Below, in pieces: positions 2,694 through 45,209 of a stretch of 64,000 bases of DNA. The position numbers and the translations under genes are program-made. The notes beneath the pieces were generated by a model. That model did not search any database. It saw only the letters and a program-made list of their open reading frames with translations, and had not been told where the DNA came from. Position 1 is the first letter of the stretch. Each line of letters starts with the position of its first letter. The stretch comes from Patescibacteria group bacterium. Its GTDB lineage: Bacteria; Patescibacteriota; Minisyncoccia; UBA6257; 2-01-FULL-56-20. The stretch is from positions 17,910-81,909 of the forward strand of contig JBBTUL010000008.1 in assembly GCA_038063755.1 (NCBI GenBank), read 5' to 3'.

Positions 2694-3236
2694 ATGTTTA
2701 TTCTCGGTAAAAAATCGAAAATGACTCAGATCTGGAAGGATGGAAAAATCGTACCCGTTACGACTATTTCGGCTCCCGCAAATACTGTCTCGCAAGTTCG
2801 GACGAAAGAAAAAGACACTTACGAAGCAGTCCAGCTTTCGCTCGGAAAAACAAAAAGAGAATTTAAAAAGACAAAAAGCGATTTAAAGAAGGGCGACACG
2901 GTAACCGTCGAAGCGTTCAAAGAGGGCGATGTGGTTCGCGTAAGCGGTCTTACAAAAGGAAGAGGATTTCAAGGAGTTGTGAAGCGACATGGATTTCATG
3001 GTGGACCAAAAACGCACGGTCAAAAAAACAGGCTTCGTGCGCCAGGATCAATCGGGAGCACCGCTCCGCAGCGAGTCTGGCCAGGAAGGCGCATGGCAGG
3101 ACACATGGGCGTCGAACGTATTAGCGTAAAAAATCTTGTTATCGCCGCGATCGATGCTGAGAAAAATTTGCTTTTGATAAAAGGCGCTGTTCCGGGACAC
3201 ATCGGATCAATTCTTGAAATAGAAACCTTGAAATAA
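2694..3236 (+). CDS. rplC: 50S ribosomal protein L3
   Basis: MFILGKKSKMTQIW N-terminus and uL3 core motifs; operon context. Confidence 0.93.
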   Translation: MFILGKKSKMTQIWKDGKIVPVTTISAPANTVSQVRTKEKDTYEAVQLSLGKTKREFKKTKSDLKKGDTVTVEAFKEGDVVRVSGLTKGRGFQGVVKRHGFHGGPKTHGQKNRLRAPGSIGSTAPQRVWPGRRMAGHMGVERISVKNLVIAAIDAEKNLLLIKGAVPGHIGSILEIETLK

Positions 3237-18392: not shown

Positions 18393-21300
18393 TTATGCCT
18401 CAAGAACCTTCGCTCGCTCACAGATAAACTTCGGCTCCCCGTCGCGCCAAGACATCTTTCCTTCGACGAGAACTACTTTATTTTCTTCCCACACTGATTT
18501 CGTCCCCTCGAGAATTCGCGGGAACACCACAAGCTCCATTGGTTTCGGTGAGAAATCCTCAAGCTGGACAAATGCCATCGGCTGCCCGTTTTTCGTGACA
18601 ATCTTTTTGATTTGCGAGATGAGACCTGCTGTTCTAAAAACGAGGTTTTCATTTTTCGTGGCGCGGAGTTCGTCGAGTGAACGTGCCTTCGTAAGCTTGA
18701 TTCTATCGGAAAGGGCGTTCAACGGATGATCGGACAGATAGAATCCAAGAAGCTCTTTTTCCCACTGGAGCCTCTGCTGAGTTTTTACTGGTTCTGCCGG
18801 AGCAAGTTGTAGTGGAGGTGTTGTCGCAGAAGTTCCTTTTCCAAAAAGCGATCCGGTTGATTGTGGTGTCGATCCTCGTTTTATTACGCTGTGGAATTTA
18901 AGTATCGTATCGATGTTTTGAAGGATCTGATTCCGTTCGATTCCCAGCGAATCAAAAACACCACTTTTCGCGAGACTTTCAAACGACTTCTTGTTCAAGT
19001 CCTTATCCTGCACGCGAGAAAGGAGATCGCTCAAGTTCGCGTATGGTCCGCGAAGCGAACGCTCTTCAATGATTGTTTTGGCAATATGGTCGCCAACGTT
19101 TTTTATCGCAAGAAGACCGAAACGAATTTTTCCGTCTCCATCCGGAGTAAAGTCGGCGAAGCTCGCATTCAAGTCTGGCGGGAGAACGTCGATATGCGCC
19201 TGCTTCGCCTCGTTTATCAGGAACGAAATGCGTTCAATATCTCCGGATTCTGCATTTAACAGCGACGCCATGAACTCATCCGGATATCGAGCCTTGAGAT
19301 ATGCCGTGCGGTAGGCGATCATGGCGTAGCATGCGGCGTGGCTCTTGTTGAAGCCGTATCGTGCAAACGGCGGGAAGAGTTCCCAAATCTTTTTCGCGGT
19401 TTTCTCATCGATTCCGCTTTTTATCATTCCTTTCACGAGTTTTTCTTCTTGCTCGTCGAGGAGAGACTTTATTTTTTTCCCGATTGCTTTCCGGAGCGTG
19501 TCTGCTTCCGGGAGCGTGTAGCCAGCGAGATCGCGGGCGATCTGCATCATTTGTTCTTGGTAAACACCAATGCCGTATGTGTTTTTGAGAATTGGCTCAA
19601 GGCGAGGATGGAGATATGTAATTTTTTCTTCCCCATGCTTTCTTTTAATAAAAGACGGAATAAGCTCCAGAGGTCCCGGACGGTAAAGTGCCACGAGAGC
19701 AATCAAGTCTTCGATTTGGGTTGGCTCAAGATCTTTCATGTATCGCCGCATGCCGGAGGATTCGAACTGGAACACTCCAGTGGTATTTCCAGCTTTTAGA
19801 ATTTCAAATGTAGCCGCGTCGTCAAGCGGTAGATTCGAGATCGATATTTCTTCTCCTTTCATGTCTCGGACAAGACGAACGGTGTCTTGGATAATTGTGA
19901 GGTTTTTGAGTCCCAGGAAGTCCATCTTCAGAAGACCTAAATCTTCGATCGCGTGCATCTCAAATTGCGTAATGATGTTTTCCTTATCCTGTGGAGCAAA
20001 CTGCAATGGAACGTACTCAATGAGCGGATTCTTCGAAATCACGGTTCCGCACGCATGAACGGAAGCGTGCCTCGCGACGCCTTCAAGATGAAGTGCTACC
20101 GTAATAAGTTTTTTTGCATCCGTATTGTTGTCGAACAGCTCTTTAAGGTCAGGGGTCTTTTTAAGTGCTTCATCAAGTTTCATCATGGGGGGAATAAGCT
20201 TCGCGATTTGATCGCAAAAGCCATAGCTTAAGCCCATGGCGCGTCCGGCATCGCGCACGGCAGCGCGCGCAGCCATCGTTCCAAAGGTAATGATCTGAGC
20301 AACCCTATCAGAGCCATAACGCTCTCGCGCATACGCTAAAACTTCGTCGCGGCGGGTATCTGCAAAATCAATATCGATATCAGGCATTTGAACGCGTTCG
20401 GGGTTTAAGAAGCGTTCAAAAAGGAGACCGTACTCAAGTGGATCAATGTCCGTAATGCGCAGTACGTACGAAACAAGACTTCCTGCTGCCGATCCACGTC
20501 CTGGCCCGACTGCTATGCCGTGGTCTTTCGCCCAGTTTACAAGGTCCTGGACAATCAAGAAGTAATCCGCGAAACCGGTTTTTACAATGACTTCAAGCTC
20601 ATATTCAAGTCGCTCTTTCGCTTCGGGAGAGGGGCCTGTGGGATATCGATATGCAACGCGTTCTTCTACGAGATTGCGGAGGTAAACATCTCGACTTATT
20701 CCTTCTGGCTTCGGAAACTCCGGAAGCAAAATCTTTCCGAGCTCCAAGGTTGTATTGCATCGTTCTCCGATTTTTACGGTGTTTTCTATCGCTTCGGGAA
20801 GATTCTTGAAACGTTCAATCATGTTTTCGGGAGAACTTATCGAGAAGTCATCTTCTTTGAGGCTCAATCTGTCGTCGTCAGAAAGACGGCTTCCGGTTTG
20901 TACCGCAAGTAGAATATCGTGGTATTCCGCGTCTTCTTTCTTCGCGTAATGGCTGTCCTGAGTCGCAACGAGCGGGATGCCGGTTTCTTTTGAAAGACGA
21001 ATGATGTCATCCCAAATTTTTACCGAATCCTTAATGTGCGGATGATCTTGTATTTCGATGAAAAAATTTCCTTTCCCGAAAATTTCCTCATATTCAAGCG
21101 CGACGCGTTTTGCATCATCATATTTTTTGTCGAGAAGCGCTTGATCAATTTCTCCGCCAAGGCATGCGGATGTTGCGATGATGCCTTCGTGATGTTTTCG
21201 TAAAAGTTCTTTATCAACCCGGGGACGATAGTAAAATCCTTCAAGATGAGCGAGGGTAACAAGCTTCATGATGTTCTTCCATCCCGTCTCATTTTCCGCA

Positions 21301-21569
21301 AGAAGAATTAAATGATGGTACCACTCGCCCGACTCCTTGCTTGTGCGGTTTTTCGGGGCAACGTATGTTTCAACGCCGAGAATCGGTTTTATTCCTTCTT
21401 TTTTCGCCTTTTTGTAGAATTCAACGCTTCCATAGAGCACCCCATGATCGGTGAGGGCTATCGTGTCCATTCCTAGTTTTTTGGCTTGGCCGACCAGCTC
21501 GTCGATTTTCGTAAGACCGTCAAGAAGTGAGTAGTGACTGTGAACGTGAAGATGGACGAACTTAGACAT
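18393..21569 (-). CDS. dnaE: DNA polymerase III alpha subunit
   Basis: N-terminal PHP domain (FVHLHVHSHYSLLDG) and polymerase core; 1058 aa. Confidence 0.95.
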   Translation of the reverse strand: MSKFVHLHVHSHYSLLDGLTKIDELVGQAKKLGMDTIALTDHGVLYGSVEFYKKAKKEGIKPILGVETYVAPKNRTSKESGEWYHHLILLAENETGWKNIMKLVTLAHLEGFYYRPRVDKELLRKHHEGIIATSACLGGEIDQALLDKKYDDAKRVALEYEEIFGKGNFFIEIQDHPHIKDSVKIWDDIIRLSKETGIPLVATQDSHYAKKEDAEYHDILLAVQTGSRLSDDDRLSLKEDDFSISSPENMIERFKNLPEAIENTVKIGERCNTTLELGKILLPEFPKPEGISRDVYLRNLVEERVAYRYPTGPSPEAKERLEYELEVIVKTGFADYFLIVQDLVNWAKDHGIAVGPGRGSAAGSLVSYVLRITDIDPLEYGLLFERFLNPERVQMPDIDIDFADTRRDEVLAYARERYGSDRVAQIITFGTMAARAAVRDAGRAMGLSYGFCDQIAKLIPPMMKLDEALKKTPDLKELFDNNTDAKKLITVALHLEGVARHASVHACGTVISKNPLIEYVPLQFAPQDKENIITQFEMHAIEDLGLLKMDFLGLKNLTIIQDTVRLVRDMKGEEISISNLPLDDAATFEILKAGNTTGVFQFESSGMRRYMKDLEPTQIEDLIALVALYRPGPLELIPSFIKRKHGEEKITYLHPRLEPILKNTYGIGVYQEQMMQIARDLAGYTLPEADTLRKAIGKKIKSLLDEQEEKLVKGMIKSGIDEKTAKKIWELFPPFARYGFNKSHAACYAMIAYRTAYLKARYPDEFMASLLNAESGDIERISFLINEAKQAHIDVLPPDLNASFADFTPDGDGKIRFGLLAIKNVGDHIAKTIIEERSLRGPYANLSDLLSRVQDKDLNKKSFESLAKSGVFDSLGIERNQILQNIDTILKFHSVIKRGSTPQSTGSLFGKGTSATTPPLQLAPAEPVKTQQRLQWEKELLGFYLSDHPLNALSDRIKLTKARSLDELRATKNENLVFRTAGLISQIKKIVTKNGQPMAFVQLEDFSPKPMELVVFPRILEGTKSVWEENKVVLVEGKMSWRDGEPKFICERAKVLEA

Positions 21570-21828
21570 GGTTCTTGGTGTACGCGGAAGACCCCGAATC
21601 AGCTTATTTTATGGTAGTATCATAGCCCAATTTCAGAGCTGTGGAAAGATTTACCCCCACACCAAAAACTTACATCCCTGGTTTTCTGACTTATACCGCC
21701 CTCCTTTCGGCCATTCATCTCGACATGCGCATACATGGCTTTTGGTGTGTGGGGTTTATTCGTCAGAAAAAGCCCCCTTCCGAATGAGGTGTACAAGGAT
21801 GGGCTTTTTCCGTAAAATGACGCTTGCG

Positions 21829-21866
21829 GCCACCTTAGCTCAGCGGTAGAGTCCCGCTTCGTGCGG
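21829..21866 (+). pseudogene. tRNA 5'-half-like fragment: acceptor strand GCCACCT plus a D-arm identical to that of the downstream tRNA-Thr, then a non-canonical CCCGC-TTCGT-GCGGG hairpin.
   Basis: The TAGCTCAGCGGTAGAG D-arm is shared with the tRNA-Thr(TGT) 70 nt downstream; no T-arm follows. Confidence 0.35.
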
Positions 21867-21942
21867 GATTGCGCTTTGTGGCTAAGGGCTTACCCTTAGG
21901 CAAAGCGGGAACAACTCTGGCGCAAGGTCCCGTTTAAAATCT

Positions 21943-22017
21943 GCCGGGATAGCTCAGCGGTAGAGCAACTCTTTTGTAAAGAGTAGGTCGCGAGTTCAAA
22001 TCTCGCTCCCGGCTCCA
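21943..22017 (+). tRNA. tRNA-Thr(TGT)
   Basis: Cloverleaf folded by hand: acceptor GCCGGGA/TCCCGGC, D-arm GCTC-AGCGGTA-GAGC, anticodon arm ACTCT-TTTGTAA-AGAGT, T-arm GCGAG-TTCAAAT-CTCGC, encoded CCA. Confidence 0.85.
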
Positions 22018-22081
22018 GGATAGGCAGATTCTATACGGGATAAAGAGAAGGTCCCCGGTTCAAATCCGGGAGGTGGCTCCA
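22018..22081 (+). pseudogene. tRNA 3'-half-like fragment: variable loop AGGTC, T-arm CCCGG-TTCAAAT-CCGGG, 3' acceptor AGGTGGC, discriminator T and CCA, but no matching local 5' half.
   Basis: AGGTGGC is the perfect complement of the GCCACCT acceptor strand at 21829-21835, ~250 nt upstream. Confidence 0.35.
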
Positions 22082-22154
22082 GTTGGGCAGGCGACGCAAG
22101 CTCCGGGCTTGTGTCGGTCTCTCGTTTTTTGCTACTATTGTGTTCGTACTAAGA

Positions 22155-22226
22155 GCCGGAGTAGTTCAGTGGTAGAACGCTTTCATGGTAAGAAAGAGGT
22201 CGGGAGTCCGATTCTCCCCTCCGGCT
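22155..22226 (+). tRNA. tRNA-Thr(GGT)
   Basis: Acceptor GCCGGAG/CTCCGGC, D-arm GTTC-AGTGGTA-GAAC, anticodon arm CTTTC-ATGGTAA-GAAAG, T-arm GGGAG-TCCGATT-CTCCC; no encoded CCA. Confidence 0.8.
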
Positions 22227-22326
22227 CACGTTAGACAATCTTGACCGCTATGGGCGGGATTAGATTTTCTTACGCCCCGCCGTCGGCGGGGCACTTTATC
22301 GTTTCTTCATCACGAGCCGGGAGAAT

Positions 22327-22599
22327 ATGGTCGTGTATTTTGTTTATATCCTGAAATCCTTAAAAACCGGTCATTATTATGTTGGATATACCAACAACAT
22401 GGCCCGGCGAATGGCCGAACACAACGGGGGAAAGACCCCATCGCTCCGGCGTCATATACCTCTTGAAATTGTAAAAATTGAGGTGTATTCTTTCTACGGT
22501 GAAGCGAGGGAGAGGGAGCGGCAAATAAAGAAATATAAGTCCGGAACCGCTTTCAGGAGAGTGTTGGGGTCTCTACCACCGCCCTCTGGCGGGGTGTAA
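22327..22599 (+). CDS. GIY-YIG (URI) domain nuclease-family protein, YhbQ-like
   Basis: VYILKS..G.YYVGYTNNMARRMAEHN is the GIY-YIG signature; 90 aa. Confidence 0.7.
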   Translation: MVVYFVYILKSLKTGHYYVGYTNNMARRMAEHNGGKTPSLRRHIPLEIVKIEVYSFYGEARERERQIKKYKSGTAFRRVLGSLPPPSGGV

Positions 22600-22636
22600 G
22601 ATTCTGTAATCCACTTCGCTTAAACAGAAATCTAAC

Positions 22637-22816
22637 ATGGCAAAAGCTAAATATGCGGACAATCTTATAGGGCTTAAATGCGGCGTTTGCAGCCGTCGGA
22701 ATTACTATACCCGCAAGAACAAAAAGAAGGTTGAACGAAAGATTCAGCTTAAGAAGTTTTGCGCTTGGTGTCGGAAGCAAACCGCGCATAAAGAAGGCAA
22801 GATCTCCGGAAAATAG
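22637..22816 (+). CDS. rpmG: 50S ribosomal protein L33. It is under the 60-aa cutoff, so absent from the supplied ORF track.
   Basis: MAKAKYADNLIGLKCGVCSRRNYYTRKNKKKVERKIQLKKFCAWCRKQTAHKEGKISGK: CxxC-N22-CxxC zinc ribbon and the bL33 pattern, in the classic position upstream of tRNA-Trp. Confidence 0.8.
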   Translation: MAKAKYADNLIGLKCGVCSRRNYYTRKNKKKVERKIQLKKFCAWCRKQTAHKEGKISGK

Positions 22817-23015
22817 TCCTTGGAGAACCGGGCTCGATTATCTCCTGCGAGGAATCGGCCCTGCATCTCGGACGTGGCGCTCCGCTTTGCGGAGTCCAAG
22901 CCGCTGCGTCCTCCGATAGCTTCTCCAAGAACTATTTTCCTCCGTACAGAGCAGACGGACAGGAAGGAGGGGAGGATTGGCGACCTTCTTTTTTTGTATT
23001 ACGCTAGAAGCGAAC

Positions 23016-23048
23016 GGGAGCTTGGTTTAGTGGTAAAACAGCGGTCTC
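23016..23048 (+). pseudogene. Exact 33-nt duplicate of the tRNA-Trp 5' half (acceptor, D-arm and start of the anticodon stem)
   Basis: GGGAGCTTGGTTTAGTGGTAAAACAGCGGTCTC is identical to 23169-23201; it then diverges into hairpins. Confidence 0.6.
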
Positions 23049-23084
23049 TCCCGATGCCCGACCATAGGTCGGGACCGGGATCCT

Positions 23085-23123
23085 CGATTTTCTAGAAATC
23101 ATCGCATATGATTTAGAAAATCG
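23085..23123. repeat. Strong near-perfect hairpin (16-18-bp stem) between the tRNA-Trp stub and the intact tRNA-Trp
   Basis: CGATTTTCTAGAAATCAT-cgcat-ATGATTTAGAAAATCG. Confidence 0.6.
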
Positions 23124-23168
23124 GGACAAAACCGCCAAAAGGTTTAGAGGTTCTACGAAGTTAGATAT

Positions 23169-23239
23169 GGGAGCTTGGTTTAGTGGTAAAACAGCGGTCT
23201 CCAAAACCGCGGTCGGAGGTCCGATTCCTCCAGCTCCCG
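23169..23239 (+). tRNA. tRNA-Trp(CCA)
   Basis: Acceptor GGGAGCT/AGCTCCC, D-arm GTTT-AGTGGTA-AAAC, anticodon arm GCGGT-CTCCAAA-ACCGC, T-arm GGAGG-TCCGATT-CCTCC. Confidence 0.85.
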
Positions 23240-23387
23240 CATTAGATTTTGTCACGCGTAGCGTGCTACAGAATCTTATGCCCCGCTATCGCCGGGGCAA
23301 ACCCACGAGAGAGCTGTGATTCATTTCATCTCTTTCCAAGAAATATATTTTGGTTATACTTCGTATATTCTCGAATCTCAGCAAAAA

Positions 23388-23472
23388 ACCTGTCAAAACT
23401 GTCCCGATTTTGTACGAGCAAAGCGAACAAACAAAATCGAGGATCCCGCCAGCGGGGCGGGACAAGGGAAGT
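23388..23472 (+). promoter_or_regulatory. Conserved ~85-nt leader upstream of Cys-rich paralog 1; a second copy lies at 25268-25354.
   Basis: Two hairpins: CGATTTTGT-N17-ACAAAATCG and CCCGCC-agcgg-GGCGGG. Both leader copies and the first ~20 codons downstream are nearly identical. Confidence 0.5.
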
Positions 23473-25254
23473 ATGAATAAAGAAATTAAAACCTGCCAAA
23501 GCTGCAAAAACCAATTCACGATCGAACCGGAGGATTTTGATTTCTACAAAAAAATAGCCGTACCGCCACCGACATTTTGTCCGGAATGCCGCCTGGCTCG
23601 CCGGATGAACTTTCGAAACGAGCGATCAATGTATCGCCGGACGTGCGATAAATGCCAGAAGAACATCATCGCCATCTATCCCGAAGGCAGTCCTTTGAAG
23701 ATATACTGCCAGCCGTGCTGGTGGTCCGATGCATGGGACCCGATGGCCTACGGATTCGATTACGATTTTTCCAAAAACTTTTTTGAGCAATTCAAAGACC
23801 TGGCCGAAAAGGTCCCGGCCATGAGCGATTTCAATACCAGCTCCTTGAACTCTGACTACTGCAACTACAGCGCCGATTGTAAGAACTGCTATCTCTTCAT
23901 TGGGGGTCGCCAAAGCGAGAACGTGTCTTTCGCAAACAGAGTGGTCACATCCAAGGATTCCCTGGATTTATATACCGGCGAGAAGTTGGAGCTGTGCTAT
24001 GAAGATGTGCAGTGCACCAATTCCTACCGTCTGTTCTTCAGCCGCTACTCGGAAGATTGCAGTGATTCCTGGTTTTTGTATGACTGCAAGAACTGCCAGA
24101 ACTGCTTCGGCTGTACCAATTTGAGGGGGCGGCAATATTACATCTTTAACCAGCCATATTCCAAGGAGGAATATACGAAAAAGCTTTCCCAGATGAACCT
24201 GGGTAGCTTCGCGGCGTTGGCAAAGGCAATGGAACGAGCCAAAAAGCAGACCTCCGGTGCCATCCATCGGTACGCCCATATCATTAACTCGCCAGGCAGC
24301 ACCGGCGACAACCTCTACAACGCCAAAAATTGTAAAGCGTGCTTCGACCTTATGGGTACGAATTCCGAGAACTCGAAGCACTGCCATTACTGCGTGGTCG
24401 GCAACAAGGACTCATATGACCAGTACGGGTCGCCGTACGCCGAGGATATGTACGAGACAATCGCCGTCGGTTTCGAATCCAACGAGAATTCGAAGTATCG
24501 TTTCAGTTATTTTATAAAAGGCAGCAGCGATATCTGGTATTCGTACAACTGCGTCTCCTCTCACAACCTGTTCGGCTGCGTCGGATTGCGCAACAAGGAA
24601 TACTGCATCTTTAACAGGCAATATTCCAAAGAGAAGTATGCCGCGCTCGTGCCGCGTATCGTGGCGCACATGGACCAGATGCCGTACACAGACAGGGGCG
24701 GGCGGCAATACAAATATGGAGAGTTCTTTCCGGCGGAACTATCTCCGTTCGCGTATAACGAAACCATCGCCCAGGAATATTTTCCGCTGACCAAAGTGGT
24801 AGCGACCGGCAGGGGACTCGCCTGGAAAGATGCAGAGGCGAGGAATTACCAGGTGACCAAGGCGGCCGACGACCTTCCGGACCACATTAAAGATGTTGAT
24901 GATTCCATCCTACAAGAGATCGTTGGTTGTGAGCATGCCGGCGCGTGCAATCACCAATGTACGACCGCTTTCCGTGTCACCCCGCGCGAACTCCAGTTCT
25001 ACAAGCAGATGGAGCTACCCCTGCCGCGCGCCTGTCCCAACTGCCGCCACTCCCTTCGACTAGAACAGAGGAACCCTCTTAAGCTTTGGAAAGGAAAATG
25101 CAAATGCGGTGGCGGAGTGTCAGGTGTGTACACCAATACCACCACTCATTTTCACGGAACAGATTCCTGCCCCAACACGTTCGAGACATCCTACGCCCCC
25201 GATCGACCCGAAATCGTCTACTGCGAACAATGCTATCAGGCGGAAGTTGCATGA
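23473..25254 (+). CDS. Large cysteine-rich protein (~590 aa, more than 35 Cys, many CxxC pairs and an internal repeat), family unknown; paralog 1
   Basis: Start chosen at MNKEIKTCQSCKN directly after the conserved leader. Internal repeat: ...NC.NCFGC.NLR...Y.I.N..YSKEEY... occurs twice. C-terminal CPNCRH...YCEQCYQAEVA. Confidence 0.7.
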   Translation: MNKEIKTCQSCKNQFTIEPEDFDFYKKIAVPPPTFCPECRLARRMNFRNERSMYRRTCDKCQKNIIAIYPEGSPLKIYCQPCWWSDAWDPMAYGFDYDFSKNFFEQFKDLAEKVPAMSDFNTSSLNSDYCNYSADCKNCYLFIGGRQSENVSFANRVVTSKDSLDLYTGEKLELCYEDVQCTNSYRLFFSRYSEDCSDSWFLYDCKNCQNCFGCTNLRGRQYYIFNQPYSKEEYTKKLSQMNLGSFAALAKAMERAKKQTSGAIHRYAHIINSPGSTGDNLYNAKNCKACFDLMGTNSENSKHCHYCVVGNKDSYDQYGSPYAEDMYETIAVGFESNENSKYRFSYFIKGSSDIWYSYNCVSSHNLFGCVGLRNKEYCIFNRQYSKEKYAALVPRIVAHMDQMPYTDRGGRQYKYGEFFPAELSPFAYNETIAQEYFPLTKVVATGRGLAWKDAEARNYQVTKAADDLPDHIKDVDDSILQEIVGCEHAGACNHQCTTAFRVTPRELQFYKQMELPLPRACPNCRHSLRLEQRNPLKLWKGKCKCGGGVSGVYTNTTTHFHGTDSCPNTFETSYAPDRPEIVYCEQCYQAEVA

Positions 25255-25354
25255 ATACCGAGATCCAAACCTGCCGAAACTGTCCCGATTTTGTACGAGC
25301 AAAGCGAATAAACAAAATCGCGGATCCCGCCAGCGGGGCGGGACAAGGGGGAGC

Positions 25355-25458: not shown

Positions 25459-27195
25459 ATGCCAACATCTGAAAATAAAGTTTGTCAGAATTGCAAAGGA
25501 TCGTTCTTGATAGACGCTCAAGATTTTGATTTTTACAAAAAAATTGATGTGCCGCCGCCGACATTTTGCCCGGAGTGCCGCAGGCAGAGGCGGTTTGCAT
25601 GGAGAAACGAAAGGACCTTGCACAAGAGGGAATGCGATCTTTGCCATAAAGGTCTTATAGCCCTGTACCCGGCCGGAACCACTTTTCCGGTCTATTGCAG
25701 TACCTGTTGGTTTTCGGATAAGTGGGACCCGCTGTCTTACGGCACTGCCTTCGATGTGTCGAAATCCTTCTTCCAACAGTTCAAGGAACTCAGCGCTCGG
25801 GCTCCGCGCTTGGCGCTATGGGTCCAGCAATGCACCAATTCCGATTACACCAACCAGTCCTATGCAAATAAAAATGTCTATCTTTCTTTCGCGCTGAGGG
25901 ACTCCGAGGATACGGCCTATTGCGCCAGAATGACTCAGGGCAAACAATGTCTTGACTGTACGTACACTTATCACTCAGAACTTCTTTACGAATGCTTGTA
26001 TGCCGACAAATGTTATCGCGGGCGTTGCTTGGAAGAAACAGAATCCTGCGTCGAAAGTGGATTCCTTTCCAACTCTCGTAATTGTCAGCAGTGTTTTGGG
26101 GGCATCAACCTGCGCTCGGCGTCCCATGTGTTTTTTGGCGAACAACTTACTAAAGAGGAATACGCCAATCGAATCAAAGACCTGAACCTTGGCAGCCGGA
26201 AGACCCAAGAAGAACTTAGTCGCCGCTTCGCGGAACTGAAATCGAAAGGCATATTCCGTTACGCGAACCTTATCAATACCGTAAATACCCAGGGAGACCA
26301 TCTTTCGAACGCGAAGAACTGCTACTATGCGTTTGATGGTTTCGATCTAGAGAATGCCAGGCATTCCTCATGGACTTTCACCAGTAAGGACATTTCGGAC
26401 TGTTACGGCGCGGGAAGTTGTGAATTGACATATGAAGGTATCGGCGTGGAAGAGGTCAACAATGTGAAGTTCTGCAACGTGACCGATGGCTCCAATAACG
26501 TGCAATATGGCGACATGTGTTCGGCGTCCAGCAATCTGTTCGGTTGCGTGGGGCTTCGCAGTAAGGAATACTGCATTCTGAATAAGCAATATTCCAAAGA
26601 AGAATATCAAAAGTTGGTCCACGAGATCGTAAAACAGATGAACGATATGCCGTATCGTGACAAGAAGGGCAGAGAATACCGTTACGGGGAATTCTTTCCG
26701 GCAGAACTGTCTCCTTTTGCCTATAATGAGACAATCGCCCAAGAGAACTTTCCTCTCTCTAAGAACGAGATAGAGGCGCAGGGATATTTTTGGAGAGAGC
26801 CGGAGAAAAGGGAATACGCCGTGACTATTGCCGCCTCGGAAGTTCCGGACACGATTGCTGACGTAACCGGTTCTATCTTGGAAGAGACTATTGCCTGCGC
26901 GCACGGTGGGACTTGCAACGACCAATGTTCTTCCGCCTTCCGTATTATTCCCCAAGAACTCCAACTGTATCGCCAGATGAATATACCGTTGCCTGTTCTT
27001 TGTCCCAACTGCCGTCATTATCAGCGCTTGGCCAAGCGAAACCCTCTGAAGCTTTGGTCGCGCCAGTGTATGTGTAGCATCAAACACCCGCAGCATTCGG
27101 AAGGACGATGTCCAAATGAATTTATGACCTCTTACGCCCCCGACCGCCCCGAGATTGTGTATTGTGAAGCATGTTACCAGTCGGAAGTCGCATAA
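25459..27195 (+). CDS. Large cysteine-rich protein, paralog 2 (578 aa)
   Basis: Aligns with paralog 1 along its full length (N-terminal CQNCKGSF..DFDFYKKI.VPPPTFCPECR; twin FGCVGLR.KEYCI.N.QYSKEEY repeats; C-terminal CPNCRH...YCEACYQSEVA). Confidence 0.75.
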   Translation: MPTSENKVCQNCKGSFLIDAQDFDFYKKIDVPPPTFCPECRRQRRFAWRNERTLHKRECDLCHKGLIALYPAGTTFPVYCSTCWFSDKWDPLSYGTAFDVSKSFFQQFKELSARAPRLALWVQQCTNSDYTNQSYANKNVYLSFALRDSEDTAYCARMTQGKQCLDCTYTYHSELLYECLYADKCYRGRCLEETESCVESGFLSNSRNCQQCFGGINLRSASHVFFGEQLTKEEYANRIKDLNLGSRKTQEELSRRFAELKSKGIFRYANLINTVNTQGDHLSNAKNCYYAFDGFDLENARHSSWTFTSKDISDCYGAGSCELTYEGIGVEEVNNVKFCNVTDGSNNVQYGDMCSASSNLFGCVGLRSKEYCILNKQYSKEEYQKLVHEIVKQMNDMPYRDKKGREYRYGEFFPAELSPFAYNETIAQENFPLSKNEIEAQGYFWREPEKREYAVTIAASEVPDTIADVTGSILEETIACAHGGTCNDQCSSAFRIIPQELQLYRQMNIPLPVLCPNCRHYQRLAKRNPLKLWSRQCMCSIKHPQHSEGRCPNEFMTSYAPDRPEIVYCEACYQSEVA

Positions 27196-44998: not shown

Positions 44999-45076
44999 CG
45001 GTTGAAAAGTTGTATATGCCGCTATCGTTCCCGATTTTGCCGCTCCGTGGTTGAAAAGTTGTATATGCCGCTATCG
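44999..45076 (+). repeat. Tandem direct repeat of ~29 nt covering the tRNA-Glu promoter region and its first 12 nt
   Basis: GGTTGAAAAGTTGTATATGCCGCTATCGT occurs at 44999-45027 and 45048-45076; the second copy runs into the tRNA. Confidence 0.6.
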
Positions 45077-45141
45077 TCTAGTCCGGTCTAGGACGCTGCC
45101 CTCTCACGGCAGAAACTCGGGTTCGAATCCCGATAGCGGTA
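45067..45141 (+). tRNA. tRNA-Glu(CTC)
   Basis: Acceptor GCCGCTA/TAGCGGT, characteristic long D-loop GTCT-AGTCCGGTCTA-GGAC, anticodon arm CTGCC-CTCTCAC-GGCAG, T-arm TCGGG-TTCGAAT-CCCGA. Confidence 0.8.
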
Positions 45142-45209
45142 CAAAAATAAAAGCCTTCCTAAATTCATCAATTTGAGTGATGAACTTGGGAAGGCTGCGG
45201 TGCAACGGG

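Follow-up and report, generated by a model that had tools for sequence, protein, structure and literature searches.

An interrupted tRNA-Thr(UGU) gene with an intact tRNA-Thr(UGU) gene inside it in a candidate phyla radiation bacterium

Introduction

How do two complementary halves of a tRNA gene come to lie on either side of a complete tRNA gene, and which of them, if any, gives rise to a tRNA? The question is raised by a 64,000-nt stretch of DNA from a Patescibacteria group bacterium (GenBank assembly GCA_038063755.1, contig JBBTUL010000008.1, positions 17,910 to 81,909 of the forward strand; hereafter "the window", in which all positions are counted unless a relative is named). A first-pass annotation, made from the letters of the window, had noticed two tRNA halves with complementary acceptor strands, bracketing an intact tRNA-Thr, and had offered three explanations: a tRNA gene disrupted by the insertion of another tRNA, a tRNA with a ~190-nt intervening sequence, or a split or permuted tRNA. 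We conclude, with a probability of about 0.8, that a resident tRNA-Thr(UGU) gene was broken by a palindromic element (which we call SE) and by a block carrying a replacement gene, that the inner gene is the one that works, and that this nested pattern is recurrent.

The host is bacterial, as the window contains dnaE (18393–21569, minus strand), lysS, and greA, and it is a Paceibacteria/Liptonbacteria-like groundwater genome of the candidate phyla radiation (CPR). To our knowledge, bacterial tRNA genes are either interrupted by group I introns or used as integrase attachment (att) sites, and nothing else. The locus described here represents a third outcome, in which an essential single-copy gene is broken by ~190 nt of non-coding DNA that brings the replacement with it; nests of this design were met at several tRNAs and at 5S rRNA across Parcubacteria-type genomes. 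In full-text literature searches, neither bacterial tRNA genes nested in this way nor SE were found described, and the recurrent nest phenomenon in CPR bacteria is apparently undescribed.

The outer halves are the resident tRNA-Thr(UGU) gene in three pieces

Eighty syntenic loci were gathered through DnaE, and closer relatives, among them L085 and L086, were added by protein search; L-numbers are our labels for the relatives' loci and metagenome contigs compared with the window. The conserved cluster in the syntenic loci consists of dnaE, tRNA-Thr(UGU or CGU), tRNA-Thr(GGU), L33, and tRNA-Trp. The window was aligned to L085, its closest relative (DnaE 88% identical), in a gap-aware manner after positions 21852–21911 and 21919–22040 had been taken out. 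The features of the locus are as follows:

21790–21818, + strand: promoter-like site TGTACA-17-TAAAAT; same position and sequence type in L085 (TTTACA..TAGAAT), collinear alignment
21829–21851, + strand: outer tRNA-Thr(UGU), piece A, GCCACCT TA GCTC AGCGGTA GAG; 23/23 identical to L085, L086, and L024
21852–21911, + strand: SE, a 60-nt palindromic element exactly between tRNA positions 24 and 25; family in a metagenome scan, covariation, model R1; absent in L085
21912–21918, + strand: outer tRNA-Thr(UGU), piece B, CAACTCT, positions 25–31; identical to and collinear with L085
21919–21927, + strand: 9-nt filler GGCGCAAGG, in place of the missing TTTG; sequence and L085 alignment
21928–21945, + strand: left inverted repeat of the cargo unit, TCCCGTTTAAAATCTGCC, its last 3 nt being the start of the inner tRNA; 16/18 complementary to 22023–22040
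21943–22017, + strand: inner intact tRNA-Thr(UGU), CCA encoded; ARAGORN, Rfam tRNA 74.2 bits
22023–22040, + strand: right inverted repeat of the cargo unit, GGCAGATTCTATACGGGA; pairs with 21928–21945
22041–22078, + strand: outer tRNA-Thr(UGU), piece C, starting TAAAGAGA, positions 36–73; 38/38 identical to L085 and L024
22081–22104, + strand: 24-nt indel relative to L085, AGTTGGGCAGGCGACGCAAGCTCC, with GCTCC repeats on both sides; alignment with L085
22155–22227, + strand: tRNA-Thr(GGU), uninterrupted, next in the conserved cluster; ARAGORN, Rfam, L085 alignment

With both blocks removed, the window is collinear with L085 from the promoter-like site through tRNA-Thr(UGU) to tRNA-Thr(GGU), and the flanks are the same. 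At the syntenic site, L085 and L086 (DnaE 79% identical) have an uninterrupted gene, GCCACCTTAGCTCAGCGGTAGAGCAACTCTTTTGTAAAGAGAAGGTCCCCGGTTCAAATCCGGGAGGTGGCT; the same intact tRNA-Thr(UGU) gene is present in L024, and the acceptor GCCACCT is found in the first cluster gene of many relatives. Piece A comprises the acceptor 5′ strand, positions 8–9, and the D-arm (standard positions 1–24), piece B the end of the D-stem, position 26, and the 5′ strand of the anticodon stem, and piece C T36, A37, A38, the 3′ strand of the anticodon stem, the variable loop, the T-arm, the acceptor 3′ strand, and the discriminator T. Together, they cover 68 of the 72 gene positions of L085, and all 68 are identical. 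The sole gap is TTTG at positions 32–35, which includes U33 and the anticodon bases U34 and G35; the sequence of the empty site is GAGCAACTCTTTTGTAAAGAGA.

When A, B, and C are joined, an anticodon loop of 3 nt results, and when the TCCCG..CGGGA blocks alone are excised, the loop has 12 nt; only when TTTG is added back is tRNA-Thr(tgt) obtained. Given that positions 32–35 are absent, no excision can restore the outer anticodon loop. ARAGORN is too permissive on joined pieces, since it called odd tRNAs from A+B+C and accepted the weakened outer gene of one relative (L128), and we therefore relied on base-by-base comparison with the intact orthologue. That comparison shows the outer halves to be the resident, ancestral tRNA-Thr(UGU) gene, parted into three pieces by inserted DNA, which, with two anticodon bases lost, would be incapable of yielding a tRNA. 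The outer gene has the marks of a pseudogene: U33 and anticodon positions 34–35 are deleted, the junction of the D-stem and position 26 is split by 60 nt, and the inner copy is intact. On the region as it stands, ARAGORN and Rfam recognised a single complete tRNA-Thr(UGU), at 21943–22017, and nothing for the halves.

These results settle several points of the first-pass annotation. The halves, the hairpins (CCCGC-TTCGT-GCGGG and those nested beyond it), and the intact inner tRNA-Thr(TGT) that it described are all in the sequence, and the acceptor match, which it had judged too good for chance, is indeed so, given the 68 identical bases shared with the uninterrupted tRNA-Thr(TGT) of relatives. 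Its prediction that an uninterrupted tRNA with the GCCACCT acceptor might occupy the site in related genomes was borne out in L085 and L086, and the halves are not unrelated decayed copies, for both come from one gene that is intact at the syntenic site of L085; the same empty site supports disruption by insertion of another tRNA. The outer identity, guessed as Ile-GAT or Thr-CGT, proved to be Thr-TGT by comparison with L085. The 3′ half reads AGGTC CCCGG TTCAAAT CCGGG AGGTGGC T CCA and ends at 22081, but the outer piece begins at 22041 and not at 22018, positions 22018–22040 being part of the inserted block. The CCA is present as described, but it is completed by the first base of the 24-nt indel, and thus falls in sequence that L085 lacks.

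The second insert carries an intact tRNA-Thr(UGU) gene

The DNA between the outer halves amounts to 189 nt and is non-coding. The second insert (21919–22040; 122 nt), which consists of the filler and the inner tRNA within inverted repeats, stands in place of positions 32–35, and the termini of its cargo unit, TCCCG...CGGGA, are the same as those of nests in L052, L123, and L092 (see below). The inner allele differs from the outer one in the acceptor (GCCGGGA/TCCCGGC) and in the T-stem (GCGAG/CTCGC), and the two share an identical 34-nt core, TAGCTCAGCGGTAGAGCAACTCTTTTGTAAAGAG. Since a gene of the inner type is the resident at this locus in L083 (DnaE 85%), two alleles circulate in the clade, and one is nested in the other here.

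The inner tRNA (21943–22017) is presumed to be the working tRNA-Thr(UGU) of the cell. The only promoter-like site upstream of it is TGTACA-17-TAAAAT, which is that of the resident gene. Transcription would start from this resident promoter, ~10 nt upstream of the outer 5′ piece, and RNase P together with 3′ processing would release the inner tRNA, leaving the outer pieces and SE as leader and trailer by-products; tRNA-Thr(GGU) at 22155–22227 may be co-transcribed. The locus is a pseudogene plus a replacement gene, ordinary in function, unusual in origin, and part of a recurrent phenomenon; in annotation, the GCCACCT halves should become a pseudogene and 21943–22017 the tRNA-Thr(UGU) gene. A phage origin of SE and the inner tRNA was considered, but is unsupported, as neither was found in viral contigs.

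SE belongs to a family of palindromic elements

SE is composed of three stems, namely P1 (TCCCGC-TTCGT-GCGGGA), P2 (GCGCTTTG/CAAAGCG, with a GG bulge), and P3 (CTAAGGG-CTTA-CCCTTAG), and has the 3′ end CGGGAA. The hairpin with the 5-nt loop and the nested hairpins, which had been taken for non-canonical replacements of tRNA arms in the 5′ half, are thus one inserted repeat element, whose site is filled in the window and empty in L085 and L086. The bases that follow CGGGAA depend on the target, being TTC in tRNA-Gly(CCC), TTG in tRNA-Ser, CAA in the window, T-loop bases in L052, and 5S bases in L097. The boundary of SE is thereby fixed, and piece B is gene sequence rather than part of SE.

A homologue of SE with compensatory changes in both stems is present in L052, a Liptonbacteria genome with 64% DnaE identity. 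A metagenome scan with the shared SE core returned 36 stretches, which is about the chance expectation for 18 fixed bases; ~20 of the 36, however, share the full design, (CCCG-loop-CGGG)ATTGCGnTTTGTGGCT-(variable hairpin)-AGACAAAnCGGGAA, and nearly all of these ~20 members sit 10–130 nt from a tRNA gene and face either way. Covariation is seen in the stem (UA, AU, and CG at one pair; 90% of cells paired), and none of 500 shuffles reached the score. Folding energies of 13 copies range from −11 to −38 kcal/mol. Model R1, which describes SE, scored 69.5 bits at 21863–21914 and, with default filters, found the window and L052 copies only in 855 kb of syntenic loci. Within the window, R1 points to at least four copies or variants, of which one is a strong scorer: the second-best match is a 78-nt insert in a tRNA-Trp fragment (just 13 bits, with filters off), and the next are two variants in the 5′ regions of paralogous open reading frames (ORFs), which indicates that SE is a repeat family not confined to tRNA genes. 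Rfam scans (cmscan of 21000–23500 at E ≤ 10, and of 11 related loci) assigned no family to SE, to the other hairpin elements, or to the halves.

SE-like variants (CGGGATCCnCGATTTTGT..ACAAAATCGGGACA) lie on the minus strand at 23399–23449 and 25279–25330, each followed by a TCCCGCCAGCGGGGCGGGA hairpin, just upstream of the paralogous ORFs 23473–25254 (593 aa) and 25459–27195 (578 aa). Both ORFs have zinc-ribbon-like CxxC motifs and gave no Pfam or NCBIfam domain match.

Nested genes recur in relatives

The same order of parts (outer 5′ piece, SE, repeat-flanked full cognate gene, outer 3′ piece) was found for tRNA-Gly(CCC) in L092, L101, L104, L128, and L131, for tRNA-Ser in L123 and L108 (tRNA-Ser(GCU) in the former), for tRNA-Thr in L052, and for 5S rRNA in L097 and L100, where the inner 5S was confirmed by Rfam. 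In every nest, SE abuts the outer 5′ piece with zero bases between them, and no SE-interrupted piece was seen that lacked an intact cognate copy within ~150 nt. The break at 34|35 is common to Gly, Ser, and Trp. The inverted repeats around the inner genes end in TCCCG/CGGGR and match at 16/18, 10/10, 12/15, 13/16, and 21/28 positions; the cargo of L052, for example, reads TCCCGTTAGA, tRNA, TCTAACGGGA, with its repeats 10/10 complementary. In the fuller nests, the loop of the first SE hairpin holds the inner gene and the repeats that flank it. TCCCG within 40 nt upstream combined with CGGGA within 40 nt downstream occurred at 3 of 136 distinct tRNAs, versus 0.4 expected, each of the three being a nest; in ~20 of 145 tRNA neighbourhoods, the tRNA had a fragment of itself within 500 nt.

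The lepA-divIC-tRNA-Gly(CCC) locus has a plain single gene in L129 and L130 and is filled in L092 and L128. Two copies of SE are present in the L128 nest, whose inner allele is separated from the L092 one by compensatory changes only, and whose outer anticodon stem pairs at just 3 of 5 positions. In L126, the outer 5′ half is missing and the T-loop of the outer 3′ half has acquired a new insert, and L131 is without the outer 3′ half. Thus, the inner copies, with their perfect cloverleaves and compensatory changes, appear to be under selection for structure, while the outer pieces drift.

In L097 and L100, a full 5S gene with a ~27-nt inverted repeat lies together with SE inside the outer 5S gene, the 3′ part of which has two more CCCCG..CGGGG hairpin inserts. 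Another hairpin pair (CCCTGTTTGTCCAAGAGCGAAGCGATTGGCAACAAACAG, then CAGTCCAGCGGAGCG..GTCGTGGCT) lies beside tRNA genes in L126, L091, and L095, sometimes adjoining SE; L126 has copies on both sides of its inner tRNA-Gly.

Partial tRNA copies elsewhere in the window

Two further tRNA genes in the window have partial copies next to them, cases of the same kind that the first-pass annotation had not recognised:

23016–23168, + strand: tRNA-Trp case, an orphan, an SE variant, and filler upstream of the full tRNA-Trp (23169–23240); exact repeat, R1, L083 flanks
45000–45066, + strand: tRNA-Glu case, a duplicate and an SE-like start, followed by the real flank and tRNA-Glu (45067–45142); exact 29-nt repeat

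The tRNA-Trp orphan (positions 1–34; 23016–23048) is an exact 33-nt copy located ~153 nt upstream of the full gene. It is followed by a 78-nt SE variant at 34|35 (23049–23126), by positions 35–43 (23127–23135), and by 33 nt of filler. The Trp locus of L083 matches the upstream flank of the orphan and the downstream flank of the full gene, and contains a 9-nt relic of the window Trp allele, GTGAGCTTG, ahead of its own, different tRNA-Trp. The tRNA-Glu duplicate is exact over 29 nt, comprising 18 nt of upstream flank and tRNA-Glu positions 1–11, and the TCCCGATTTTGCCGCTCCGT that follows looks like a truncated SE. TCCCG stands immediately after three junctions in the window that were set independently of the motif (Thr 24|25, Trp 34|35, and Glu 11|12). 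ARAGORN places the anticodon of tRNA-Glu at position 37, which is unusual.

Alternative explanations

The outer gene could be functional as an interrupted tRNA with a long intervening sequence or as a split tRNA: RNase P and RNase Z would cut the inner tRNA out, and the remaining halves would then be spliced or annealed. We regard this as very improbable, even though the outer gene has acceptor strands complementary at 7/7 positions and retains both its D-arm and its T-arm, TCCCG and CGGGA at the ends of the inserted block pair, and in the fold of the whole 256 nt the paired acceptor strands enclose the inner tRNA (minimum free energy −111.3 kcal/mol, z = −5.3); such a low folding energy is expected from an embedded tRNA plus hairpins and is uninformative on function. 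The outer halves of L092, moreover, join to a perfect tRNA-Gly(CCC), and relatives do have an intervening sequence in another tRNA gene: in L005 (reverse strand, ~2782–3041) and L035, tRNA-Thr(GGU) is cut after the anticodon (36|37) by a structured sequence of ~220 nt. Its exons are perfect and no spare copy is present, from which it follows that this sequence would have to be spliced; it gave no Rfam Intron_gpI match at E ≤ 1, and motifs picked out by eye, such as AAGATACAGTC, suggest a group I label. The contrast with the SE-interrupted pieces, which have their intact cognate copy close by, lends support to SE interruptions being left in place in the RNA. In the window, a complete tRNA-Thr(UGU) lies inside, so that the outer gene is not the sole source of this tRNA, and the loss of positions 32–35 leaves either of the two faulty loops described above. 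Furthermore, cmscan of 21000–23500 gave three tRNAs plus weak unrelated matches and no group I core at E ≤ 10. There is no bulge-helix-bulge either: ACTCT/AGAGA and TCCCG/CGGGA are parted at the second insertion by a 9 × 3 nt internal loop, and the first junction (24|25) has no exon helix. The missing bases, together with the lack of a group I core and a bulge-helix-bulge, speak against the proposed ~190-nt intervening sequence, and the proposal of a split or permuted tRNA founders on the anticodon loop, which cannot be restored, and on the outer pieces of homologous nests, which decay or vanish (as at the Gly locus) while the inner copy is conserved.

The remaining explanations concern how the nest arose. 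Rather than through any dedicated cassette, divergent tRNA alleles might have recombined, by uptake of foreign DNA, illegitimate or homology-facilitated joining, or local duplication and deletion, with hairpins invading the dead pieces later. Two allele types do segregate at the Thr locus among close relatives, the orphans of the Trp and Glu cases are identical to the full genes, as though by local partial duplication, the relic in L083 is of another Trp allele, SE-like hairpins also occur in ordinary intergenic DNA, and the window nest requires several events under any model. Recombination of this kind is nonetheless unlikely, as it leaves unexplained why four kinds of inner gene in unrelated contigs share the TCCCG/CGGGR repeat termini, why SE directly abuts the outer 5′ piece in every nest, and why Gly, Ser, and Trp are broken at the same 34|35. 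tRNA genes are classical integration sites, with the crossover often in the anticodon loop, and the halves might accordingly be attL/attR-type scars of an integrase-driven element that was later mostly deleted; 3′-end duplicates of tRNA-Trp and tRNA-Thr(GGU) surround a ~105-nt element in relatives, and a large serine recombinase lies near the cluster in L083. We give this reading next to no weight, in that the outer pieces are complementary, non-overlapping parts of one gene with no direct repeat of an att core, the 189-nt insert has no integrase, and if a tRNA-bearing attP had been the site of crossover, two chimeric genes would be expected instead of an intact gene nested in a broken one. 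Equally implausible is an assembly artefact in which two strain alleles of tRNA-Thr(UGU), which share the 34-nt core, were mis-joined. The contig from a second assembly is of low coverage, but that assembly (L002; a separate ENA assembly from another sample replicate) has the same DnaE, flanking tRNA pieces that are both 100% identical, and an identical inner tRNA, so the nest is not a one-off product of assembly. In addition, the junctions hold unique sequence (SE, filler, and inverted repeats) found in neither allele, and the same architecture is present in contigs from other sites and projects.

Several observations weigh against the reading that we favour, in which SE and a replacement-gene block broke the resident gene and the inner gene took over. 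Piece B is just 7 nt long, and the termini are only 5–6 bp. No target-site duplication is seen at Thr 24|25 or Trp 34|35 (although this is compatible with transposases that make none), no transposase or recombinase could be tied to SE, the neighbouring genes having been scanned without finding such a domain, and none of the compared loci has a copy of the flanks of the inner cassette that would identify a donor. With no enzyme, duplication, or donor, mobility is deduced from empty and filled sites and from the distribution of the family only. The window itself has an empty SE, a separate cargo unit, 9 nt of filler, and a 4-nt loss, unlike the single-block nests elsewhere, so at least two events are needed. 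Promoter and processing, like the silence of the outer pieces, are read from sequence. As the L092 halves still join correctly, an RNA-level role for outer halves may exist in some nests such as that one, and the case against it does not extend to every nest. Finally, all sequences come from metagenome assemblies, and the coverage of the second assembly is ~4.

How might the nests have formed?

Tentatively, and at somewhat less than even odds, SE is a non-autonomous element of the repetitive extragenic palindrome (REP) or miniature inverted-repeat transposable element (MITE) type that inserts into RNA genes and survives where a cognate copy is at hand. Such an element would insert precisely, without target duplication, at loop or stem-loop-junction positions (24|25, 34|35, and 55|56) of structural-RNA genes, and a complete RNA gene could travel as cargo within its terminal TCCCG/CGGGA hairpin. 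Where the target is an essential tRNA or 5S gene present in a single copy, the insertion would be tolerated only if a functional cognate copy arrived with it or adjoined it, a requirement that would explain why each interrupted gene seen encloses or adjoins an intact counterpart. A bolder version, which we find doubtful, holds that SE-type hairpins are a new class of tiny non-autonomous cassettes that carry a structural-RNA gene inside the hairpin and kill and replace the cognate gene in one step, driving serial replacement of tRNA alleles in CPR. It is less likely that in young nests, such as that of L092, the outer halves are still processed and joined as RNA, which would amount to protein-dependent tRNA splicing in bacteria. 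Were the hairpin element responsible, tRNA alleles could be replaced horizontally through it, the orphan tRNA pieces that mislead CPR annotation would have a source, and loop-targeted, scar-free insertion would have a natural example.

Comparison with known systems

REP/BIME, Correia/NEMIS, RUP, and ERIC are bacterial palindromic repeats or MITEs. SE resembles these families in being short, non-coding, and intergenic, in having terminal inverted repeats and a stable hairpin, in its many copies in both orientations, and in its presence/absence polymorphism at orthologous sites. We know of no report that they insert precisely into tRNA or 5S loops or enclose a whole RNA gene; SE would differ from them in its precise insertion into loops and in the RNA gene held in its terminal hairpin, and it shows no target-site duplication. 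Integron gene cassettes, which carry attC sites, likewise combine a small cargo with an imperfect palindrome having conserved ends, a variable centre, and bulged bases, but the nests have no IntI, attI platform, or R′/R″ core motifs, and in them the RNA-gene cargo is inside the hairpin and the cognate gene is the target.

Integrative elements and prophages target tRNA genes and restore them, and sublocation preferences of integrative elements within tRNA genes were reportedly described by K. P. Williams in 2002. As in the window, tRNA genes are the target, a breakpoint in the anticodon loop is preferred, the damage is compensated, and orphan pieces are left. Such elements, however, bring as attP no more than the part of the tRNA that they displace, encode an integrase, and leave a direct repeat, whereas the window has a complete gene inside and neither repeat nor integrase. 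Group I introns occupy the anticodon loops of some bacterial tRNAs (cyanobacterial tRNA-Leu and Azoarcus tRNA-Ile), and there, too, ~200 nt interrupt the gene in the anticodon loop or close to it; in contrast, the window has no catalytic core, lacks exon bases, has a second insertion in the D-arm, and holds a complete tRNA inside.

The closest published parallel found is the mobile-element model for the tRNA-Thr(GGU) of Caldiarchaeum, in which gene disruption by a mobile element left a fragment and led to the gain of an intron (Sugahara et al., 2012; PMC3293823). As in the window, a tRNA-Thr was broken by mobile DNA, an orphan 5′ fragment lies near a full gene, and populations are heterogeneous, with small inserts moving between tRNA genes. 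Among the archaeal systems, including split and intron-transposed tRNAs, the inserts are either spliced by EndA at a bulge-helix-bulge or kb-sized with a recombinase, whereas the insert in the window is ~190 nt long, geneless, and without a bulge-helix-bulge; furthermore, the host here is bacterial, and the insert brings a complete replacement for a dead outer gene. The window locus would thus be a bacterial parallel to mobile-element models for the origin of split and intron-containing archaeal tRNA genes.

Other structures at tRNA genes of relatives

A second element, ~105 nt long (GGAATCGAACrGGGrAAGGGGTyGGGAAAmC...GTTTyCCCGwGGCGGA...AAACCGaGGGGTTTT...), is present in L014, L032, L048, and L095, and also in L020 and L005, and absent from the window. 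It lies between tRNA-Trp or tRNA-Thr(GGU) and a direct repeat of the last 14–22 nt of that gene; an inverted copy of the T-arm forms its left end, and it has no Rfam match. In L014 (9330–9710, window orientation), a tRNA-Val nest consists of positions 1–21, a 35-nt GC hairpin, positions 22–30, a small GIY-YIG ORF, and a full tRNA-Val. The GIY-YIG gene of the window (22327–22599) was considered as a homing agent and rejected, as it lies outside the nest and is syntenic after tRNA-Thr(GGU) in L048, L007, and L003. A large serine recombinase gene and a BsoBI-type endonuclease gene adjoin the Thr-Thr-L33-Trp cluster of L083 on its downstream side, a sign that this neighbourhood may also host a separate integrated element. 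Lastly, the tRNA-Thr(UGU) of L025 is 86 nt long, with an extra hairpin of ~13 nt (GCGCCGAAAGGC) in the variable region, and is still called as a tRNA by ARAGORN.

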